Assembly: GCA_963708725.1 (NCBI GenBank)
Contig: CAVPTL010000008.1
Span: 530,988-594,987 of the forward strand
Source of the DNA: an uncultured Actinomycetes bacterium
GTDB taxonomy: Bacteria > Actinomycetota > Thermoleophilia > Gaiellales > JAICJC01
Direction: 5' to 3'
Length of the DNA stretch: 64,000 nucleotides
Shown piece after piece: positions 2,983 to 43,015 of the stretch; within the stretch, counting starts at the first letter, position 1, and every line of letters begins with the position of its first letter. The notes below the pieces were generated by a model that worked only from the letters and a program-made list of their open reading frames with translations, did no database searches and had not been told where the DNA came from. Made by a program: the position numbers and the translations under genes.

Positions 2983-4856
2983 GTCACCGGTGGGACGGGG
3001 CAGGTGCCGCTCTGGTTGTAGTGGGCCACCCTGATATGAACGGTCGAACCCTGCTGGGCCTGTTGCCCGGAGCTGGGATCCTGGCCCGTGACCGTGCCGT
3101 CCTGGGACTGATTGCAGGTGTTGGAGTTGATGACCCCGACCTTGAAGCCGTTGTTGGTGATGGCTGTGCTGGCATCGGTCTCGGTGAGTCCGAGCACCGC
3201 AGGCACAACCCCGTTGCCCGGGCCGTCGGACACGGTGATCGTGACCGAGGTGCCCTGCGACACGAGGCTGTCCTGTGACGGGGATGTGCCGATGACCTCG
3301 TTCACCGGCACGTCGGTGCTGTTGGTGCGCGTACACGAGCCGTTGAGCTTCTGTGACTTGAGTCGTTGCTTGGCCTGATTGCAGTTGAGACCAGCGACTG
3401 CCGGGACGGTGACGTTGCCAGAGGCGACGGTGATCGTGATCGGCTTGTCGAGGTCGACGACGCTGCCTCGCTTCGGCGTCGTCGACACCACGTCGCCGCC
3501 CGGCTGGGCCGGCGTGTCGGGTTGATTCGGGTTGATCGTGACGTGTGTGAATCCGGCCCCGGTGAGCTCGGCGGTCGCGTCGGCTGCGGACTTGCCAGTG
3601 ACGTCGGGTACCGCTTTTGCGCCCGGTCCGGCGCTGATCGAGAGCGTCACGACCGAGTTCTTGTCGACACTCGATCCCTGGTCGGGGTCGACCTTGAATA
3701 CCGTGCCCAGCTTGGCGTTCGAAGTGGCATCGACGCACTTGCCGACCAGTCCGGCCTGACGGAGGCTGGCCTGGGCGGCGAGGCACGTGTGCGTCTTGAG
3801 GTTGCTGGGGACGGTCACCTGATCGCCGCGCAGCTGCTGATACACGACCAGCCCGATACCGGCGGCGACCACCAGGAACAGCACAACCAAGAGCCACGGC
3901 AAAAGGCTCCGCTTGGGACCAGCGGGGGCGCTGGGAGGCGCCGGCGGCAACACGGCGGTTGCGGCGGCCTGCTGGGCCGAGATCACCTGGGTCGCCTGCT
4001 GGGTATCGGCCGAAACGGCGCCACCGCGGGAAACGCGCCGCAGCTCGTCGGCCATCGCGCGGGCCGAGGAATGCCGCAGCGCGGGGTCCTTCGCGAGGGC
4101 GCGCATCACGACCTGCTCGAGCTCGGGCGACACCAGCCGGTTCTTGCTTCGCAGCGACGGTGGCTGATCCGACACCTGCTTCATGGCGATGTCGACCGCC
4201 CCGTCGCCGGTGAAGGGCAGCTCTCCCGTGAGCATCTCGAACAGCACGATGCCCATCGAGTACAGGTCCGACTGTGGCCCGACGGCCTGGCCTCGGGCCT
4301 GCTCGGGGGACAGGTACTGCGCAGTACCGACGATCGAGCCGACCTCGGTCATCTCCTGGGTGTTCTGGGCGCGGGCGATCCCGAAATCGGTGACCTTCAG
4401 CCGGTTGTCATCGGTCAGCACCATGTTGTGGGGCTTCACGTCGCGGTGGATCACCCCGCGGCGATGTGCGAAGTCGAGCGCGTCCAGCGCCTGCGTCGCC
4501 CAGCCGATCGCCTCAGCCTCCGGCAGCGGGGCGCGCTGCGTGATCTCCTGCTTCAGCGTCGGGCCGTCGAGGAACTCCATCGCGATGTAGTAGGTGCCCT
4601 CAGCCTCACCGCGGTCGTACACCGCGACGATGTTGGGATGGTTCAGACCAGCCGCCGCCGAGGCCTCACGCCGGAACCGCTCGACAAAACCGTCGTCGCG
4701 CGCAAAGCGGTCGGAGAGGATTTTGATCGCAACCTGGCGGCCGAGCAGCTCGTCGGTGGCCAGGTAGACGTCGGCCATCCCGCCCGAGCCCAGGCGCCGC
4801 CCCAACCGGTACCGGTTGTCGAAGAGATTCCCGTTGTCTGGAGGAGTGTCGTCCAC
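2979..4856 (-). CDS. pknB: Ser/Thr protein kinase with one TM helix and four extracellular PASTA repeats (PknB type)
   Basis: Hanks kinase motifs (LGSGGMADVY, HRDVKPHN, DFGIA, SPEQ), a TM segment (LLPWLLVVLFLVVAAGIGLVVY), then four ~65-aa PASTA-like repeats. GTG start. Confidence 0.95.
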   Translation of the reverse strand: MDDTPPDNGNLFDNRYRLGRRLGSGGMADVYLATDELLGRQVAIKILSDRFARDDGFVERFRREASAAAGLNHPNIVAVYDRGEAEGTYYIAMEFLDGPTLKQEITQRAPLPEAEAIGWATQALDALDFAHRRGVIHRDVKPHNMVLTDDNRLKVTDFGIARAQNTQEMTEVGSIVGTAQYLSPEQARGQAVGPQSDLYSMGIVLFEMLTGELPFTGDGAVDIAMKQVSDQPPSLRSKNRLVSPELEQVVMRALAKDPALRHSSARAMADELRRVSRGGAVSADTQQATQVISAQQAAATAVLPPAPPSAPAGPKRSLLPWLLVVLFLVVAAGIGLVVYQQLRGDQVTVPSNLKTHTCLAAQASLRQAGLVGKCVDATSNAKLGTVFKVDPDQGSSVDKNSVVTLSISAGPGAKAVPDVTGKSAADATAELTGAGFTHVTINPNQPDTPAQPGGDVVSTTPKRGSVVDLDKPITITVASGNVTVPAVAGLNCNQAKQRLKSQKLNGSCTRTNSTDVPVNEVIGTSPSQDSLVSQGTSVTITVSDGPGNGVVPAVLGLTETDASTAITNNGFKVGVINSNTCNQSQDGTVTGQDPSSGQQAQQGSTVHIRVAHYNQSGTCPVPPVT

Positions 4857-15414: not shown

Positions 15415-17421
15415 GTGGTCACGAACGGCTCCAACCACCTCCGACCCGACGTGCGGTCCCAGCTGAATCCCCCACGGGGAGTGGCTGAGGTCGTCGCGGA
15501 GTTGTCCGCGGTGGGGCCCGACGCGTTGCCCTCCGCTGCGTGTCGTGCTCTGGCCGACGTACTTCCGCTCGACGAGGCCCGGTTCGTCACCAACATCGGG
15601 GAGGTCGGGTCGTGGGCGCGGGTTCGAGATCGCCGCCGAAGCATCCGTCGACACAGCGTGCAGACCGCTGTGTCCGGGGCAACCGAGCGGCCGTTGCAAT
15701 GGCGAGACGGAAACCAGACGCTGCTTGCAGTGCCGGTTCGCCGCAGCGGCCGTCGGTTGGCGGTGCTCCTTGGATCGGCCGCAACGACGCAGGAGTTCAC
15801 CGATCGGGAAGTACACACGGGTGAGCTCGTGGCCGCTGCGGTCGCGGCGGCCGACGGCGACTCCGAGCGCGACCGTGAAGCGACCGCGCGGCCGCTGGAG
15901 GCTGCGGTGTCGGAGATCGAGGTTGGATGGGCCACGGTCGAGGCGCTGAAAGCGGTGTTGGAGTTCGACGCGTGTCGCGTGTATCTCCCCGGTGTGGGGG
16001 ACAACCGGGTTGCACCGATCGTTCAGTGTGGGATCGGGCAGACTGCGTGCCCCGAAGCGACGACCGCCGAGGCGTGTGCGCCGGGAGTCGGTGCCGCGGG
16101 CCGGGCGATGCTGGACGGGCGATCGCGGATCATCCCCAACAGCCGTTTCGAGCCGCACGCCGCCAAGATCGTCGATGTCGTACCCGTCGACGAATCACTC
16201 TTGGTGGTCCCGGTGATGGTGCATGAGCAGCCCGTTGCGGTGATCGTGGTCGCTCGGCTTGGCGCCGACCAGATCAGTCGCGGAGATCTGGTTGAGGTCG
16301 AGCGCGTTGCCATGCGTTCTGCCTCGGCCTTTCGGGCGGTGGGGCTGTTTCGAAAGGCAGCCGAGCAGGCCCGCGTCTCGCAGGCGTTGCTGGAGCTCGG
16401 TGAGGCACTCGGCGCCCAGACCGGCGTGGAGGGAGTCGCCGCGATGCTTGCGGCCGCCGCTGACCGGTTGATCGAGTGCGCGGCGGTGTCGGTGTGGCTG
16501 CGCGACGGCGATCAGATGCGCATAGCCTCCGCGCGCGGATACACCCCCGACGAATCCGCGCGACTCTTCGAGCAACCGATTCCGGCCGATGCTCCCCTGT
16601 TCGCCGAGGCACTCGATCGCCGCGAGGTGGTGGTGCGCCCGTTCCTCGCCGCCGAGCCGCTCGCCTCGCGACTCGATGGCACGCTCGACGGCTCGACATT
16701 CGCCGTTGTCGCGGTCGGCGAGCGCTCGGCGAATCGGGCTGCCATCGTCGTCCAGCGTGGCCCGCGCCGGGGTGCTCCGTCCCCGCTCGAACGCCAGATG
16801 CTGCATGGCATCGCGGATCAGACCTTGATCGCGCTCACAAACCGGATGCTGTATGCCGAACTCGACCAGTGGTTTCTGGCGACGGTGCAGGCACTTGCCA
16901 CAGCGCTCGAGACCAAGGACGAGTACACGGGGATGCACGCAAGCCAGCTCGAGCAACTCTGCACCACCGTCGCGTCCGAGCTTGGCCTGACCGGGGCCGA
17001 GTTGCGAAACGTGAAGCTCGGTGCGCTGCTGCACGACATCGGCAAGATCGGAATCCCGTCGCCGATCCTGAACAAGCCCGCGCCACTGACCGAGGCGGAG
17101 TGGGAGGTGATGCGGCGCCATCCTGAGCTCGGCGCTCGCATCATCGAGCCGGTCGCCGGCCTCGACGGCGCCCGCGAGCTGGTGATCGCCTGTCATGAGC
17201 ACTGGGATGGGAGCGGCTATCCCAACGGCCTTGCGGGCGAGGCGATCCCACTGGGGGCGCGCATCATCCTGACCTGCGATGCCTACGACGCGATGACCTC
17301 TGATCGGGTGTATCGCGCCGCGCTTCCGGTCTCGGAGGCGATTGTCGAACTCCAGCGACACGCCGGCACACAGTTTGATCCGGCGGTGGCGGATGCAGTG
17401 GTGGCCGTCGTCGGCGAGTGA
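15415..17421 (+). CDS. GAF-domain-containing HD-GYP protein (putative c-di-GMP phosphodiesterase)
   Basis: The C-terminal HD-GYP domain is clear (HDIGKIGIP…CHEHWDGSGYPNGL). The N-terminal ~430 aa look like tandem GAF domains. The start is uncertain. Confidence 0.85.
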   Translation: MVTNGSNHLRPDVRSQLNPPRGVAEVVAELSAVGPDALPSAACRALADVLPLDEARFVTNIGEVGSWARVRDRRRSIRRHSVQTAVSGATERPLQWRDGNQTLLAVPVRRSGRRLAVLLGSAATTQEFTDREVHTGELVAAAVAAADGDSERDREATARPLEAAVSEIEVGWATVEALKAVLEFDACRVYLPGVGDNRVAPIVQCGIGQTACPEATTAEACAPGVGAAGRAMLDGRSRIIPNSRFEPHAAKIVDVVPVDESLLVVPVMVHEQPVAVIVVARLGADQISRGDLVEVERVAMRSASAFRAVGLFRKAAEQARVSQALLELGEALGAQTGVEGVAAMLAAAADRLIECAAVSVWLRDGDQMRIASARGYTPDESARLFEQPIPADAPLFAEALDRREVVVRPFLAAEPLASRLDGTLDGSTFAVVAVGERSANRAAIVVQRGPRRGAPSPLERQMLHGIADQTLIALTNRMLYAELDQWFLATVQALATALETKDEYTGMHASQLEQLCTTVASELGLTGAELRNVKLGALLHDIGKIGIPSPILNKPAPLTEAEWEVMRRHPELGARIIEPVAGLDGARELVIACHEHWDGSGYPNGLAGEAIPLGARIILTCDAYDAMTSDRVYRAALPVSEAIVELQRHAGTQFDPAVADAVVAVVGE

Positions 17422-17451
17422 TTTCCGGGCAGTCGTGTAAGCTTTGAGCGT

Positions 17452-17490
17452 CGATCCCAACGGCGGGGTCGGCAGAGGCAACGACGCCTC
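17452..17490 (+). promoter_or_regulatory. candidate ANTAR-target RNA: two hexaloop hairpins (P1, P2) in the glnA leader
   Basis: P1 is CGATCCC[AACGGC]GGGGTCG (17452-17471). P2 is GAGGC[AACGAC]GCCTC (17475-17490). Both loops are 6 nt with A1 and G4. The P2 3' arm is shared with the terminator stem. Confidence 0.55.
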
Positions 17491-17533
17491 CAGGTGACGG
17501 ATTTCGCGATCCGCCACCTGGGGGCGTTTTTTT
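17486..17533 (+). terminator. intrinsic terminator (17-bp stem, T7 tract) between the HD-GYP gene and glnA
   Basis: GCCTCCAGGTGACGGAT[TTCGCG]ATCCGCCACCTGGGGGC with one A/C mismatch, then G and TTTTTTT (17527-17533). Confidence 0.8.
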
Positions 17534-17563
17534 GTGCCGTAAATGCGAACAGGAGGGGCGAAA

Positions 17564-18925
17564 ATGGCGACAATCGAAGATACGCGGAACCTCGAGGCGG
17601 TTCGCGCTGAGGTCGTGCGAGAGGTGCGCGAGCGCGAGATCAAGTTCGTGCGGCTGTGGTTTACCGACGTGGTGGGACGGCTCAAGAGCTTTGCGATCAC
17701 GGCGTCAGAACTCGAGGGTGCACTCGAGCGGGGGATGGGGTTCGACGGCTCATCGGTCACGGGCTTCAACGCGATCGAGGAATCCGACATGATCGCGATG
17801 CCGGATCCCACCACCTTCAAGGTGCTGCCGTGGCAGACCGGTGAGAGCAACGTGGCGCGCATGATCTGCGACGTGCGCACACCCGACGGTGAGCCGTACG
17901 AGGCAGACTCGCGGCACGTGCTGCGAACCGCTCTGGAGCGGATGCACTCGCTCGGCTTCGACTCGTTCAAGGTCGGCCCGGAACTCGAGTACTTCTACTT
18001 CAAGATCGACGAGCAGGGCCGCCCGCACGCGCTCGACTCCGGCGGCTACTTCGAAGAGACGACGGTGGATGCCTCGGCGGACCTGCGCAAGGAGACCGTG
18101 CTGGCGCTCGAGGGGATGGGGATTCCGGTCGAGTATCTCCACCATGAGGTCGGCCCGTCACAGCACGAGATCGACGTGCGCTACGCCGAGGGTCTCGACA
18201 TGGCCGATCACTGCATCACGTACCGAAATGTCGTGAAAGAGGTCGCCAAGAAGCACGGTATCCATGCGACCTTTATGCCGAAGCCGCTTTTCGGCGTCAA
18301 CGGCTCGGGGATGCACACCCATCAGTCGCTCTTCATCGGCGACTCCAACGCGTTCTATGACCCGGACGACCCGTGGTTTTTGTCCGATGTGGCCAAGAGC
18401 TTCATCGCGGGCCAGCTGCGTCACGCGCGCGAGATCTCGATGCTGTTCGCGCAGTGGGTCAACAGCTACAAGCGGCTGGTGCCGGGGTATGAGGCGCCGG
18501 TGTACGTCGCGTGGTCGCGGCGCAACCGATCCGCGCTGATTCGGGTGCCGCTGTATCACCCTGGCATGGAGAAGGCGACGCGGGCAGAGATTCGCTGCCC
18601 CGATCCGTCGTGCAACCCGTATCTGGCCTTCGCCGGTCTGCTGCACGCCGGGCTGGAGGGGATCGAGAAGGGCTATGAGCTGCCCGATCCGATGGAGAGC
18701 AACCTCTATGACCTGACCGCCCCCGAGCGCGCGAGCCTCGGGATCGACTCGCTGCCCGAGTCGCTGGGTGAGGCGATCGAGGCGGCGGCGAGCTCGGAGC
18801 TCGTTGAGAAGGCACTCGGAAGCGAGCTGCGCGATCGGCTGGTGACGCTCAAGCGCGAGGAGTGGGACGAGTACCGGGTGCAGGTAACGCCGTGGGAGTT
18901 GGAGCGATACCTCCCCACGCTGTAA
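17564..18925 (+). CDS. glnA: glutamine synthetase, type I
   Basis: GS-I motifs (FDGSSVTGF, NGSGMHTHQSLF, VPGYEAPVY…SRRNRSALIRVP). AGGAGG lies 7 nt upstream of ATG 17564. Confidence 0.95.
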   Translation: MATIEDTRNLEAVRAEVVREVREREIKFVRLWFTDVVGRLKSFAITASELEGALERGMGFDGSSVTGFNAIEESDMIAMPDPTTFKVLPWQTGESNVARMICDVRTPDGEPYEADSRHVLRTALERMHSLGFDSFKVGPELEYFYFKIDEQGRPHALDSGGYFEETTVDASADLRKETVLALEGMGIPVEYLHHEVGPSQHEIDVRYAEGLDMADHCITYRNVVKEVAKKHGIHATFMPKPLFGVNGSGMHTHQSLFIGDSNAFYDPDDPWFLSDVAKSFIAGQLRHAREISMLFAQWVNSYKRLVPGYEAPVYVAWSRRNRSALIRVPLYHPGMEKATRAEIRCPDPSCNPYLAFAGLLHAGLEGIEKGYELPDPMESNLYDLTAPERASLGIDSLPESLGEAIEAAASSELVEKALGSELRDRLVTLKREEWDEYRVQVTPWELERYLPTL

Positions 18926-18933
18926 GAGATCGG

Positions 18934-18957
18934 CGACAATCCCCGGATGGATTGTCG
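18934..18957 (+). other. 9-bp hairpin in the glnA-pdtaS spacer
   Basis: CGACAATCC[CCGGAT]GGATTGTCG, with no U-tract after it. Confidence 0.4.
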
Positions 18958-18975
18958 ACTGACCAGGAGTTGCCC

Positions 18976-20469
18976 GTGAGCGCGGTCGCCGAGCGCGACC
19001 GCGCCGCGCGGCACCTCCAGCTTCTGACCGAAACGATCGCGGCGGTCAACTCGACGCTGGACCTGGCCGGCGTGTTCACCCAGATCGCGTCCAAGGTTGC
19101 GCAGGCGATGAACACCGATGCCTGTTACGTGTACCTGTACGACGAGCCCAGCGGCATGCTGGAGCTGCGAGCCACCCACGGTGCCCGCTTCGACGACCCG
19201 GCCCACCGACCGCGGATGGCCCCGGGTGAGGGCATCACGGGTGTGGCGGCGGCATCGCTGCGTCCGGTGACGATCGCGCGGGCGGCGCATCTCGATCCAC
19301 GGTTCCTGTCGTTTCCGAACCTGCCCGAAGACGAGTACGAGTCGATCCTGGCGGTGCCGGTACTGGCTCGCGACAAGCTTGCCGGCGCGCTGAATGTGCG
19401 TACCCGTGAGCCGCGGGTGTTCGGCGCCGACGAGATCGCGTTGCTGTCGGCGATTGCCGGCCAGGTCGGCCAGGCAATCGAGAACGCGAAGCTGTACGAG
19501 CGCTCCCAGCAGCGGGTGGTCGAGCTGGAGGCTCTGGCCGACATCGGTCGCACGATGTCGGGTTCGCTCTACCTGGATGAGGCGCTGGCCGGAATCGCCA
19601 CCCGCGCGATGCGCGCGCTCGGCGCCGACGGCTGCGCGGTCGTGCTCGAAAGCGATGAGGGGATCTCGGTGGGCTTCCGCGAGGGCGTCACCCGATCGGA
19701 CGCCGACCTGATCGCGATGGCGGGGGCCGCCGAGCCCGAGGGCGAGACGTTTCTCGTGCGCCGCTTGCAGTGGAAGCAGCGCGACAACGGGGCGCTGGTG
19801 GTGCTGTCGGAGACTCCGCGCTCGTGGTCGCCCGAGGAACGCTCGTTGCTCACGACGATCGCCCACGCCGCAAGCGCCGCGGTCGCAAACGCCCAGGCGG
19901 CGCTGCGCGGCCTGCTGGCTCAGGAGATTCACCATCGGGTCAAGAACAACCTTCAGACGGTCGCCTCGCTGCTCCGTCTCCAGGCCGGCGCGACCGACGA
20001 CGAGCACGCGTCCAAGGCGCTCGAGGAGAGTGTCAACCGCATTCTTTCGATCGCGGCGGTCCATGATCTTCTGACCGAGTCCCGAGCCGACGATGTCGAC
20101 TGCGCGGGCCTGATCGGCACGCTCGAGGCGATGCTGGGGCAGGGCCTTGGCGGCCGCAGCTTGGACTCTCAGCTCGACTCGGTGAAGCTTTCCGGGGCGC
20201 GCGCCACCGCGCTTGCCCTGGTGTTCTGTGAGCTCTTCCAAAATGCGGTCGAGCACGGTGGCGGCGCTATCCAGGTCGGGTTGAGGCGAACCGGCGAGAC
20301 GATCGAGCTGACGGTCTCGGACGAGGGCAGCGGGCCGTCGTCCGACAGCCAGCCGGGGCTGGGGCTTCGGATCGCGCAGGCGCTTGTCACCGGCGAGCTC
20401 GGCGGGACGTTGGAGCTGGCCACCGCGGGGAGTGGGAAGGCGGTGGTGAGATTTCCGGCCGCGTCTTGA
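18976..20469 (+). CDS. pdtaS: GAF-domain sensor histidine kinase, HisKA_2 type (PdtaS-like)
   Basis: The H-box EIHHRVKNNLQTVASLLRLQ and a C-terminal HATPase region (ELFQNAVEHG…DEGSG…GLGLRI). Start placed at GTG 18976 after CCAGGAG. The track ORF start at 18862 overlaps glnA. Confidence 0.85.
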   Translation: MSAVAERDRAARHLQLLTETIAAVNSTLDLAGVFTQIASKVAQAMNTDACYVYLYDEPSGMLELRATHGARFDDPAHRPRMAPGEGITGVAAASLRPVTIARAAHLDPRFLSFPNLPEDEYESILAVPVLARDKLAGALNVRTREPRVFGADEIALLSAIAGQVGQAIENAKLYERSQQRVVELEALADIGRTMSGSLYLDEALAGIATRAMRALGADGCAVVLESDEGISVGFREGVTRSDADLIAMAGAAEPEGETFLVRRLQWKQRDNGALVVLSETPRSWSPEERSLLTTIAHAASAAVANAQAALRGLLAQEIHHRVKNNLQTVASLLRLQAGATDDEHASKALEESVNRILSIAAVHDLLTESRADDVDCAGLIGTLEAMLGQGLGGRSLDSQLDSVKLSGARATALALVFCELFQNAVEHGGGAIQVGLRRTGETIELTVSDEGSGPSSDSQPGLGLRIAQALVTGELGGTLELATAGSGKAVVRFPAAS

Positions 20470-21020
20470 TCGCCGAGGACGAGACGATCATCCGGCTCGA
20501 TCTGGCCGCGATGCTGCAACGCGCCGGCTTCGAGGTGGTGGCTGAGGCCAGCGACGGTCTCGAGGCGGTCGACCTGGCGGCGTCATCGGCGCCGGATATC
20601 GCGCTGCTCGACGTCAAGATGCCTGGTCTCGACGGCATCGACGTGGCCCGCAAGATCCTGGAGCAGCGTCCGATACCGGTGGTGATCGTGACCGCCTTTT
20701 CGGAGCGCGAGGTGGTGGAGCGCGCGATCGAGGCCGGGGTGTTCGGGTACCTGGTCAAGCCATTTCGCGAGGGTGATCTGTTACCGGCGATCGAGACCGC
20801 CCGGGCTCGTCACGCCGAGCTCGAGGAGCTGCGGGCCGAGTCGGACGACCTTCGCGACGCTCTGGCTGCGCGCAAGGCGATCGAGCGGGCCAAGGGACTG
20901 CTGATGGCTCGCGATGACCTCACCGAGTCAGAAGCATTTGGCCGCATGCGTCGCGCATCTCAGCAAACCGGCCGCTCGATGCGCGAGATCGCCGAGGCCA
21001 TCGTCGCAACCCTTGAATAA
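20466..21020 (+). CDS. pdtaR: response regulator with ANTAR RNA-binding output domain (PdtaR-like)
   Basis: REC domain (IAEDETIIRLDL…LDVKMPGLDG…YLVKP) plus an ANTAR helix pattern (AARKAIERAKGLLMARDDLTESEAFGRMRRASQQTGRSMREIAEAIV). The TTG start overlaps the pdtaS stop. Confidence 0.9.
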   Translation: MIAEDETIIRLDLAAMLQRAGFEVVAEASDGLEAVDLAASSAPDIALLDVKMPGLDGIDVARKILEQRPIPVVIVTAFSEREVVERAIEAGVFGYLVKPFREGDLLPAIETARARHAELEELRAESDDLRDALAARKAIERAKGLLMARDDLTESEAFGRMRRASQQTGRSMREIAEAIVATLE

Positions 21021-21042
21021 CGGTGCCAGGCACCGTTATTCA
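21014..21042. terminator. perfect 14-1-14 palindrome, likely bidirectional terminator; copy A of a repeated element
   Basis: TGAATAACGGTGCC-A-GGCACCGTTATTCA. The stop codons of both convergent genes (TAA 21018-21020 on plus, TAA complement 21036-21038) lie inside its arms. Confidence 0.7.
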
Positions 21043-21617
21043 CTCCCGATCCCGACTGGCGTCGGTCCCTCGGGACAGGGGGCTGGGTCCGGGCGGCAGA
21101 TAACCACGGCGTAGGGTTCGGTCAGGCTGTAGTGGTTGCCGAACCGGTCGTGGTAGCGCACGGTGAAGCCGCGTGCGGTGGCCGCAGTGCCGCGAGTCGA
21201 CTTCAGTCCGATGAGCAGCTGGGCGCCGGCGAGTGGTTCAGATTTCGGCCGGATCACGAAGCCTTGGAGTGGCTTGATGCCTGGGAGTTCAGGGATGTCG
21301 CCCGCAGCTGGCGGATAGTCGTCGGAGCCCGCGAGGTGGTCGTGGGCTCCGTCAGCTGGTCGGGCGAGCCCACCCACCACTCGGAATCCTGGCGTCGCGT
21401 CGATCGGCGTCACGGAGTCGAGTGTGATCGACTCGTTGCTGCCGTTCATCAGGAGAATCCCCCCGAACGTGAACGAGCGTCCAACCTTGACTCCAAACGA
21501 CGCGCCAAGTGCGCTATCCGGCCGTTGGAGGAGTCCGGGAGATTGACCCGCGCATGCAGAGATCACACCTGCGGCCGCTGGGATTGCCAAAACGATGAGG
21601 ATCCGCCTCCAACTCAT
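21036..21617 (-). CDS. putative lipoprotein, unknown function
   Basis: MSWRRILIVLAIPAAAGVISAC: signal peptide with a lipobox-like ISAC. Start at ATG 21617 inside the track ORF. No family recognised. Confidence 0.55.
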   Translation of the reverse strand: MSWRRILIVLAIPAAAGVISACAGQSPGLLQRPDSALGASFGVKVGRSFTFGGILLMNGSNESITLDSVTPIDATPGFRVVGGLARPADGAHDHLAGSDDYPPAAGDIPELPGIKPLQGFVIRPKSEPLAGAQLLIGLKSTRGTAATARGFTVRYHDRFGNHYSLTEPYAVVICRPDPAPCPEGPTPVGIGSE

Positions 21618-39552: not shown

Positions 39553-39625
39553 GCCCTCGTAGCTCAGGGGATAGAGCGCGGCTCTCCTAAGGCCGGCGTC
39601 GCAGGTTCGAATCCTGCCGAGGGCA
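39553..39625 (+). tRNA. tRNA-Arg (anticodon CCT)
   Basis: Hand-folded cloverleaf: acceptor GCCCTCG/CGAGGGC, D arm GCTC-AGGGGATA-GAGC, anticodon arm CGGCT-CTCCTAA-GGCCG, variable loop GCGTC, T arm GCAGG-TTCGAAT-CCTGC, discriminator A. 73 nt, no encoded CCA. Confidence 0.9.
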
Positions 39626-42341: not shown

Positions 42342-43015
42342 CCTTCTCGCTTGCCGCTGTTGATCGGTCCACCGGCATGTCCGGGATCGTTGTCAGCTCG
42401 TCCAGTCCATGCGTCGCGGCGCGGTGCGCGCACGCCCGAGCCGGCGTCGGGGCAGCGGCGTCGCAGAACGTGACAGACCCGCGGCTGGGGCCAAAACTGC
42501 TCGACCTCGTGGCAGCGGGCCACACGCCCGCCGACGCAATCGCGGTCGCCCTCGCCGACGAGCCACACGCAGCCTTTCGGCAGCTGACCGTGGTGTCTCT
42601 CGCCGGGCAGACCGCGGCGTTCTCGGGCGAGCAGACACTGGGCTTGTACGCCAGCAGTGAGGGCGACGGTGCCGTGGCTGCGGGGAACCTGCTGGCCGAC
42701 GGTTCGGTGCCCGAGGCGATGGTCGCGGCGTTTGCCTCCACCGCCGGCCATCTCGGCGCGCGGCTGGTGGCGGCGCTCGCCGCCGGACTTGCGGCCGGTG
42801 GTGAGGAGGGGCCGGTTCGATCGGCGGGGATGTTGGTGGTCGACCGCGTCAGCTGGCCGGTCGCGGATCTGCGGGTGGACTGGGACGACTCACCGATCGA
42901 ACGGTTGTCCGATCTTTGGGATGTGTGGGAGCCTCAGCTCGCCGACTACGTCACGCGTGCGCTCGACCCCACGGTCGCACCCAGCTACGGCGTGCCCGGC
43001 GACCCGGCAGCCTAG
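42338..43015 (+). CDS. DUF1028-family (Ntn-hydrolase-like) protein
   Basis: [44 protein letters not shown]… is typical of the DUF1028 N-terminus. ATGA overlap with the ATPase gene. Confidence 0.75.

Follow-up and report, generated by a model that had tools for sequence, protein, structure and literature searches.

How the expression of glnA, which encodes a type I glutamine synthetase (GS), is controlled in an uncultured bacterium of the order Gaiellales is a question raised by the short region that precedes this gene in a 64,000-nucleotide (nt) stretch of the contig CAVPTL010000008.1. This stretch is referred to below as the window, and all coordinates are positions in it, on the plus strand unless stated otherwise. 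The original prediction, made from the sequence alone, had placed at 17438 to 17563, between a gene for an HD-GYP protein and glnA, a leader composed of two small hairpins with six-nucleotide loops (P1 and P2) and a transcription terminator, of the type controlled by RNA-binding proteins with an ANTAR domain, and had drawn attention to a sensor histidine kinase and an ANTAR response regulator encoded immediately 3′ of glnA. The computational analysis described here leads us to propose that region 17438 to 17563 is probably the glnA promoter and 5′ leader, the latter being a transcription attenuator under classical ANTAR antitermination.

Architecture and folding of the glnA leader

The sequence of 17438 to 17563, as read directly, agrees base for base with its earlier description. 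A −10 hexamer of the TAnnnT type, TAAGCT, is located at 17438 to 17443, 31 nt 5′ of P2. P1, CGATCCC[AACGGC]GGGGTCG, possesses a 7-bp core with one G-U pair (17452 to 17471), evident both from direct reading and from the minimum free energy (MFE) fold, and can be extended to 9 bp (17450 to 17473) around its hexaloop AACGGC at 17459 to 17464. P2, the anti-terminator hairpin GAGGC[AACGAC]GCCTC, comprises 5 bp (17475 to 17490) and a hexaloop at 17480 to 17485, and is separated from P1 by a linker of 1 nt if P1 is taken as 9 bp or of 3 nt if it is taken as 7 bp. Both loops carry the canonical A at position 1 (A1) and G at position 4 (G4). The intrinsic terminator, for which 17 bp had been described, was found by folding to extend to a 22-pair stem with one A/C mismatch (17483 to 17528; 46 nt), accompanied by seven T residues (T7) at 17527 to 17533; its 5′ base (17483 to 17490) overlaps the end of the P2 loop and the P2 3′ arm (GCCTC; 17486 to 17490).

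The ribosome-binding site (RBS) of glnA, AGGAGG, is located at 17552 to 17557, and the U7 tract lies 30 nt upstream of the ATG at 17564. Because the T run and the RBS are separated by 18 nt only, a gap which lacks a TAnnnT element, glnA must be transcribed through the terminator. The transcription start is presumed to lie at approximately 17449 to 17451, at the foot of P1, as the 31-nt distance from TAAGCT to P2 falls within the distance class of related dual-hairpin leaders (see below).

Folding with ViennaRNA returned P1 plus P2 as the MFE structure of 17450 to 17490 (−23.6 kcal/mol, z = −4.6) and assigned −35.4 kcal/mol to the terminator (z = −7.8). In prefix folding, both P1 and P2 were kept to approximately nt 17520, with P2 being displaced once the last bases of the terminator 3′ arm emerge. 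Constrained folding favored the terminated fold by 8.8 kcal/mol over the fold in which P2 is enforced, and in the latter the remaining hairpin stops 6 to 7 nt short of the U tract. Such behavior is the geometry of a protein-dependent attenuator, and the mutual exclusivity of P2 and the terminator, which had been predicted from their shared GCCTC segment, is thus borne out together with the positions of all three elements.

Conservation of the leader and its promoter among Thermoleophilia

A scan with the GS protein, restricted to one genome per species, yielded 80 loci, all from genomes or metagenome-assembled genomes of Thermoleophilia (Gaiellales and Solirubrobacterales), the closest GS among them being 94% identical to that of the window. 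A hairpin of the form (A/G)GGC-[RAYGNN]-GCC(T/C) stands before the GS gene in 53 of the 80, and its 3′ arm doubles as the base of a terminator that closes with a T run. The P2 core, AGGC-N6-GCCT, is almost invariant across the leaders of these 53 loci, and the overlap between P2 and the terminator is kept in all leaders of the relatives. As the genes upstream of the leader vary among loci (HD-GYP, ABC transporter, and others), the leader is assigned to the GS gene rather than to its HD-GYP neighbor. Two of the loci, L037 and L041, represent the two ends of a single contig (JALYTD010000004.1; 24,160 bp) and carry inverted copies of one GS locus whose leaders are identical; the palindromic appearance of this contig probably reflects an assembly artifact. 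L041 was, therefore, left out of the loop statistics and of the 21-leader covariation set described below, while being retained in the tallies of 80 loci and among the 66 leaders used for promoter assessment.

A TAnnnT hexamer was present in 66 of these 66 leaders, against a background of 0.00074 per nt, and its distance to P2 falls into two classes: 30 to 45 nt where P1 is present (dual class) and 9 to 16 nt where it is not (single class). The earlier assignment of TAAGCT as a −10 element that places the transcription start at P1 is, consequently, upheld by hexamers at fixed distances throughout the set.

The leader is also associated with the genes for the kinase and the ANTAR regulator. A homolog of the former (at least 50% identity) or of the latter (at least 60%) was encountered in the approximately 4-kb flank of 38 of the 53 leader-positive loci versus 1 of the 27 leader-negative loci (Fisher P = 2e-9, uncorrected for phylogeny), and this synteny spans GS identities from 94% to approximately 70%.

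Among the leader-negative loci, those of Solirubrobacteraceae (L021, L022, L024, and others) were observed to share the sequence ...CAAGTAAGGTTC(C/T)CGCGCGATG some 10 to 20 nt before the GS start, and TAAGGT or TAACGT was noted approximately 8 nt upstream of the GS ATG. Since this TAnnnT hexamer is positioned only a few nucleotides before the ATG, the arrangement suggests that in the Solirubrobacterales-like loci the glnA mRNA is leaderless and its control of another kind.

Covariation and chance expectation

Covariation was assessed in 21 dual-hairpin leaders, comprising those of the window and L001 to L010 and ten leaders that precede a second GS gene (discussed below). Pair counts were derived from a gap-free alignment of P1 plus P2 with the linker removed, because alignment of whole leaders with MAFFT and RNAalifold shifted the P1 register between subgroups. 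Four of the five pairs of the P1 stem exhibited compensatory changes, and 97% of cells were paired, a percentage that is inflated by the selection of P1 as the best hexaloop hairpin in each leader. This preselection inflates neither the conservation of G4 in the loop nor the compensatory changes, the loop sequence having played no part in the choice. The P1 covariation score was reached in 0 of 500 shuffles, and pairing fell to 34 to 54% when the register was slid. P2, whose stem never varies, is for that reason uninformative with respect to covariation; its outermost pair is retained in 13 of the 21 leaders, which reduces the core to 4 bp (AGGC/GCCU). In the terminator stem, 10 of 21 pairs had changed on both sides across the 11 orthologous leaders. 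Of the features by which the original prediction was to be judged, conservation in related leaders was thus observed for P1 and P2, and covariation for P1.

A covariance model was additionally built from 18 relatives, from which the window, L001, and L002 were excluded. It returned the window element as the top match in 128 kb (29.2 bits, E = 3.6e-4). A second match, at 42713 to 42759 on the minus strand (17.7 bits), was rejected on the grounds that it is situated inside a coding sequence, has a loop of approximately 20 nt, and is devoid of a terminator.

The pair of hexaloops conforming to A..G.. occurs a single time in the 64 kb when both strands are considered, and a RAYGNN hexaloop hairpin followed by a T run occurs at the glnA leader only. 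Shuffled sequences are, nevertheless, expected to contain the relaxed dual motif approximately 2.5 times and its strict form (stems of at least 7 and 5 bp) approximately 0.14 times, so that the motif alone is weak evidence, and the verdict that the element exceeds chance is founded on comparative conservation and not on the motif. The Rfam check suggested with the original prediction yielded no match to an ANTAR-target family. An Rfam 15 cmscan of 17350 to 17650 at E ≤ 10 produced only chance hairpin matches to microRNA and small RNA models, it being not established whether Rfam holds an ANTAR-target family, and at gathering threshold the single Rfam match in the whole window was a tRNA gene (39553 to 39625, plus strand). 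A simple promoter/terminator scanner reported no element in 17000 to 21500; this outcome was not counted against the terminator, because the scanner allows no stem mismatch and the A/C mismatch therefore hides the stem.

Loop variation and single-hairpin leaders

Across the relatives, G4 is retained by 21 of 21 P1 loops and by 66 of 71 P2-type loops, whereas position 1 is G in 17 of 21 and 49 of 71, respectively, giving the consensus R-A-Y-G-N-N. A strict scan of the relatives for the A..G.. dual motif matched L001 and L002 only; the other relatives were missed because position 1 of their loops is mostly G and because many of their leaders contain a single hairpin. The latter applies to approximately 44 loci (for example, L014 at 3912 to 3984, L034 at 3907 to 3979, and L025 at 3912 to 3985), in which a lone hexaloop hairpin, mostly GACGNN, overlaps the terminator in the absence of P1. 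Such leaders may be regarded as candidate natural single-hexaloop ANTAR antiterminators. A gene for a flavin amine oxidase (Pfam Amino_oxidase) was also observed between the GS gene corresponding to glnA of the window and the kinase gene in single-hairpin loci (L012, 5575 to 6924, plus strand).

These features find a parallel in the crystal structure of EutV bound to RNA, in which G4 stacks on Tyr164, A1 is without protein contact, and a single hexaloop represents the minimal site (Walshe et al., PMC8934654). Both loop-1 G and single hairpins fit this structure, because A1 is uncontacted, G4 stacking is critical, and one hexaloop suffices as the minimal site.

The kinase and ANTAR regulator encoded 3′ of glnA

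The glnA gene (17564 to 18925, plus strand) encodes a type I GS of 453 amino acids (aa) with Pfam domains Gln-synt_N and Gln-synt_C; its product scored 514.8 bits against NCBIfam TIGR00653 (cutoff, 429.15) and 324 bits, under the cutoff of 650, against the gamma-glutamylputrescine synthetase model. It is followed by a gene for a sensor histidine kinase of GAF-HisKA_2-HATPase_c architecture (18976 to 20469, plus strand; Pfam), whose stop codon overlaps the start codon of the gene for a PdtaR-like response regulator with receiver and ANTAR domains (20466 to 21020, plus strand), located 1.5 kb past glnA. The regulator exceeds the Pfam cutoffs for both Response_reg (97.7 bits) and ANTAR (72.6 bits), and a domain scan confirmed that its ANTAR domain is the only one in the window, as had been claimed.

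The regulator is 49% identical to Mycobacterium tuberculosis PdtaR (Rv1626; PDB 1S8N; E = 3e-49) in a full-length, ungapped alignment, and 39% identical to EutV (PDB 6WSH), likewise over a full-length alignment. It carries the AEDE...LLDVKMP signature of the receiver acidic pocket and phospho-acceptor Asp. Its Phe in the motif SEAF aligns with Phe of PdtaR (PDAF) and with Tyr of EutV (EEAY), the latter being presumably the G4-stacking Tyr164, since the aligned ANTAR domain contains no other Tyr. The kinase, which harbors the H-box HHRVKNNLQ, is presumed to be the cognate kinase of the adjoining regulator. Approximately 150 aa between its GAF and HisKA_2 domains (residues ~170 to 310) have no Pfam assignment. 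The GAF domain best matches the N-terminal GAF of PtsP/EI-Ntr (NCBIfam NF008283, E = 2.9e-24; PDB 3ci6 and 3trc), and a PDB search with the sensor region retrieved no chain named PdtaS even at E ≤ 10. The designation of the two proteins as a PdtaS/PdtaR-type pair is, therefore, justified for the regulator, whereas for the kinase it applies by domain architecture only; a PdtaS-type kinase would be an ortholog of Rv3220c with a cytoplasmic GAF-PAS sensor joined to the HisKA_2/HATPase core. In enzyme I-Ntr, a GAF domain of the PtsP type responds to glutamine and 2-oxoglutarate.

Whether the leader governs glnA together with the two downstream genes, thereby generating positive feedback as originally suggested, is uncertain. 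The hairpin in the spacer that separates the two genes glnA and kinase (18930 to 18962, plus strand; 13 pairs, one bulged base, hexaloop CCGGAT) has no U tract and is thus not a canonical intrinsic terminator, so that read-through from glnA is possible; the GTG start codon of the kinase gene is preceded by a Shine-Dalgarno sequence. In L001, L005, and L007 to L010, on the other hand, TACACT, TACGCT, or TAGTAT (all TAnnnT) lies a few nucleotides before the kinase start, often after a strong GC hairpin, which suggests a separate, possibly leaderless, kinase transcript in these loci. Downstream of the regulator stop codon, between convergent open reading frames, a perfect 13-bp hairpin, GAATAACGGTGCC/GGCACCGTTATTC with loop AGG and without a U tract (21014 to 21042, plus strand; z = −5.3 for the region), probably marks the operon end or a bidirectional transcript end.

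The gene upstream of the leader (15415 to 17421, plus strand) encodes a GAF-GAF-HD-GYP cyclic di-GMP (c-di-GMP) phosphodiesterase, with the HD motif at residue 540 and GYP at residue 601. A gene of this type immediately precedes the glnA leader in five related loci, with homologs (49 to 72% identity) in L001, L002, L006, and L010. Binding of c-di-GMP has been reported for mycobacterial PdtaS (bioRxiv 10.1101/615575) and for the ANTAR protein NasT (PMC10783516); a c-di-GMP input is conceivable.

Proposed mechanism and alternative explanations

Transcription is proposed to begin a few nucleotides past TAAGCT, so that the RNA would begin with P1; P1 and then P2 would be the first to fold. Upon emergence of the 3′ arm GGGGGCG, the more stable terminator would displace P2 and transcription would stop at U7, rendering the default state OFF. 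Phosphorylation by the GAF/HisKA_2 kinase is believed to activate the receiver-ANTAR regulator, a dimer of which, as the presumed binding factor, would engage the hexaloops chiefly through G4 and keep P2 closed. GCCUC would thereby be withheld from the terminator base, leaving a residual hairpin 6 to 7 nt from the U tract and allowing polymerase to enter glnA, with read-through perhaps continuing into the kinase and regulator genes in this genome. Nitrogen limitation is the obvious candidate for the signal, the target gene and the PtsP-like GAF domain of the kinase being the two features that point to it.

Several observations weigh against this proposal. The co-occurrence of leader and kinase/ANTAR genes is confounded by phylogeny, as the positive loci are all Gaiellales-like and the negative loci all Solirubrobacterales-like, and in 15 leader-positive loci neither the kinase nor the ANTAR gene is found in the fetched flank. 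The G at loop position 1 in most relatives and the approximately 44 single-hairpin loci depart from the ANTAR-target definition of 2012. The choice of P1 as the best hairpin of each leader raises its apparent pairing, as stated above, and the leave-out model placed P1 of the window in a different register. Lastly, the pairing of P2 is without covariation support, its stem being invariant, and its conservation could reflect a terminator or protein-sequence constraint alone.

The alternative that best withstands the evidence, which we nonetheless consider unlikely, is that the leader attenuates glnA under the control of another factor, be it an ANTAR protein encoded elsewhere, an RNA-binding protein of unrelated type, or an RNA that itself senses a small molecule. 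It would accommodate the 15 loci just mentioned as well as the loop-1 G and single-hairpin forms, which are unlike a canonical ANTAR target, and the neighboring regulator does enter our scheme as a presumed binding partner only. The leader is, however, syntenic with the kinase/ANTAR pair down to approximately 70% GS identity, the residue so strongly conserved in both types of loop, G4, is the one contacted by ANTAR in the EutV structure, and the element is near-identical to a site bound experimentally by the ANTAR regulator GnfR. As regards a ligand-sensing RNA, two hairpins of 5 to 9 bp offer too little room for a ligand pocket, and no match to a riboswitch was obtained from Rfam.

It is less probable still that the hairpins act post-transcriptionally, as a 5′ stabilizer or as a processing or translation signal, while the terminator is leaky and unregulated. 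Hairpins at the 5′ end stabilize mRNAs, and P1 would occupy the extreme 5′ end of the deduced transcript. Many actinobacterial ANTAR RNAs, moreover, act on translation and not on termination (PMC8164766). Such a role would leave unexplained why the P2 3′ arm overlaps the terminator 5′ base in every leader; the RBS, 62 nt 3′ of P2, is sequestered by neither P1 nor P2, and leakiness is hardly to be expected of a terminator with a 22-pair stem and U7. The remaining alternative, that the large hairpin, which begins 62 nt past the HD-GYP stop codon ending at 17421, is merely the constitutive terminator of that gene, with P1 and P2 being chance hairpins (the relaxed motif is, after all, expected about 2.5 times per window) and glnA being transcribed independently, is highly improbable and already contradicted by the comparative data, namely, the same leader before GS genes with unrelated upstream neighbors, the conserved −10 element upstream of P1, the 18-nt gap without a −10 element between T run and RBS, the covariation of P1 and conservation of the loops, and the E value of the leave-out model. 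Classical ANTAR antitermination, given the A1/G4 loops, the terminator overlap, and a conservation tied to GS, accordingly remains the preferred explanation for the glnA leader.

A second GS paralog and wider implications

A second GS gene of type I, which encodes a 480-aa paralog and is often divergent from the gene for the 453-aa enzyme, is preceded by a dual-hexaloop leader and terminator of its own in at least 10 relatives. Such genes lie on the minus strand in L012 (550 to 2083) and L034 (2325 to 3857), and likewise on the minus strand in L015, L020, L025, L032, L037, L039, L040, L043, and L056. The P1 loops of these leaders include GACGGC, GAGGAG, and GCCGAA, and P2 follows the pattern AGGC-GAYGNN-GCCT. 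One attenuator type would, therefore, seem to be common to both GS genes in these genomes, and because the second gene carries a dual-hairpin leader of its own, the element is predicted to mark a small GS regulon in the Gaiellales-like lineage. A polyamine-related role of the 453-aa paralog is conceivable, in view of the flavin amine oxidase gene of the single-hairpin loci and of the below-cutoff score of this GS (324 bits) on the gamma-glutamylputrescine synthetase model.

A broader scenario, which we put forward tentatively, is that across Gaiellales a PdtaR-type regulator and a kinase with a PtsP/EI-Ntr-type GAF domain, which may sense glutamine/2-oxoglutarate, control both GS paralogs via leader attenuators, mostly single-hexaloop antiterminators with loop-1 G, possibly with c-di-GMP cross-wiring through the adjacent GAF-HD-GYP protein. 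If this were true, these leaders would provide the first in-genome cases of the minimal single-hexaloop ANTAR site proposed from the EutV structure, and would point to the sensing of nitrogen status as an ancestral role of the PdtaS/PdtaR family.

In Firmicutes and Proteobacteria, the control of nitrogen genes by ANTAR proteins is firmly documented. For the PdtaR-type regulators of Actinobacteria, by contrast, it has yet to be clarified which RNAs they target physiologically and which signals they receive, and terminator linkage was seen for few of the ANTAR RNAs surveyed in this group (PMC8164766). The locus described here and its approximately 50 relatives represent a textbook terminator-overlap target that is syntenic with a PdtaR homolog and a kinase. 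They offer a testable model for the function of the PdtaR family in soil Thermoleophilia, which are abundant but barely studied, and the single-hexaloop relatives constitute a natural test of the revised ANTAR binding model, while the general picture of ANTAR biology is unchanged.

Comparison with known ANTAR systems

The ANTAR target was defined as two small hexaloop hairpins with conserved A1 and G4, of which P2 overlaps a terminator, and most matches to this definition were upstream of nitrogen genes, including those for GS (Ramesh et al. 2012, PMC3369931); the perspective that accompanied this work also names GS as an ANTAR target. Entries in Table S2 of the same publication record terminator-overlapping leaders before GS genes, adjoining ANTAR response regulators, many of them in Clostridia, with Alkaliphilus, Desulforudis, Carboxydothermus, several Desulfotomaculum, Desulfitobacterium, Heliobacterium, and Caldicellulosiruptor among the genera listed (PMC3369931). 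NitR of Clostridium saccharobutylicum is, furthermore, described in a secondary account as an antiterminator of the ANTAR class through which GS/GOGAT genes are induced when nitrogen is limiting (PMC6316151, citing Stutz et al. 2007). Because of these precedents, antitermination of a GS gene by an ANTAR regulator is not new, and the claim of novelty attached to the original prediction was overstated in this respect. As to the narrower part of that claim, the papers found in our literature search on PdtaS/PdtaR describe no link to glnA, nitrogen, or GS, and no description was found of a GS-ANTAR circuit in Actinobacteria/Thermoleophilia, with a PdtaR-type regulator, or with a physically linked GAF kinase. 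The survey of actinobacterial ANTAR RNAs reports few terminator-linked examples and stem-loop linkers of 2 to 25 nt (PMC8164766). Its tables include one GS-gene match, in Actinomyces meyeri and of the RBS-sequestering type, and one match in Conexibacter woesei, upstream of a gene for a hypothetical protein, while the names Gaiella, Thermoleophilum, Solirubrobacter, and Rubrobacter are not matched in these tables.

The clostridial GS leaders display the same overlap of dual hexaloops and terminator before a GS gene and an adjoining ANTAR regulator gene as observed here. They differ in phylum, the present locus belonging to Actinomycetota (class Thermoleophilia), and in that the PdtaR-like regulator of the window is translationally coupled to a GAF/HisKA_2 kinase, whereas the clostridial table entries cited above mention no kinase. 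The leaders of the Thermoleophilia relatives, unlike the clostridial ones, mostly begin their loops with G and often comprise one hairpin only.

NasR/nasF of Klebsiella and AmiR/amiE of Pseudomonas resemble the glnA leader in presenting an A1/G4 hexaloop hairpin before a terminator in a nitrogen-related, ANTAR-bound leader, but have NIT or AmiC sensor partners without phosphorelay and target nitrate assimilation and amidase, respectively. The PdtaS/PdtaR system of Mycobacterium and Streptomyces corresponds in its regulator (Rv1626, above) and in the layout of its cytoplasmic kinase, in which an N-terminal GAF domain is joined to a HisKA_2 core. Its genes are, in contrast, orphans, unlinked to each other and to glnA, and the kinase sensor of the window resembles the GAF of PtsP and not any PdtaS chain in PDB. 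EutV/EutW of Enterococcus faecalis shares with the proposed system the two A1/G4 hexaloop hairpins, a P2 3′ arm common to the terminator, and a kinase-activated receiver-ANTAR regulator; it differs in having ethanolamine use as its target and Tyr at the G4-stacking position, which is occupied by Phe here, as in PdtaR.

Perhaps the closest parallel to the element itself is provided by GnfK/GnfR of Geobacter sulfurreducens, in which GnfR binds CAGGCAANGGCGCC overlapping nif terminators (Ueki and Lovley 2010, PMC2995071). The GnfR targets named there are nifH and nifEN, not glnA; gnfK and gnfR are described as unlinked and under GnfL/GnfM and RpoN control, and GnfK as being without a sensor domain, whereas the kinase of the window has a GAF domain. 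The site bound by GnfR, CAGGCAANGGCGCC, is nevertheless almost equal to P2 of the window, CAGAGGCAACGACGCC, with both overlapping a terminator, and in GnfK/GnfR, as is proposed for glnA, a kinase-activated receiver-ANTAR regulator antiterminates nitrogen genes.

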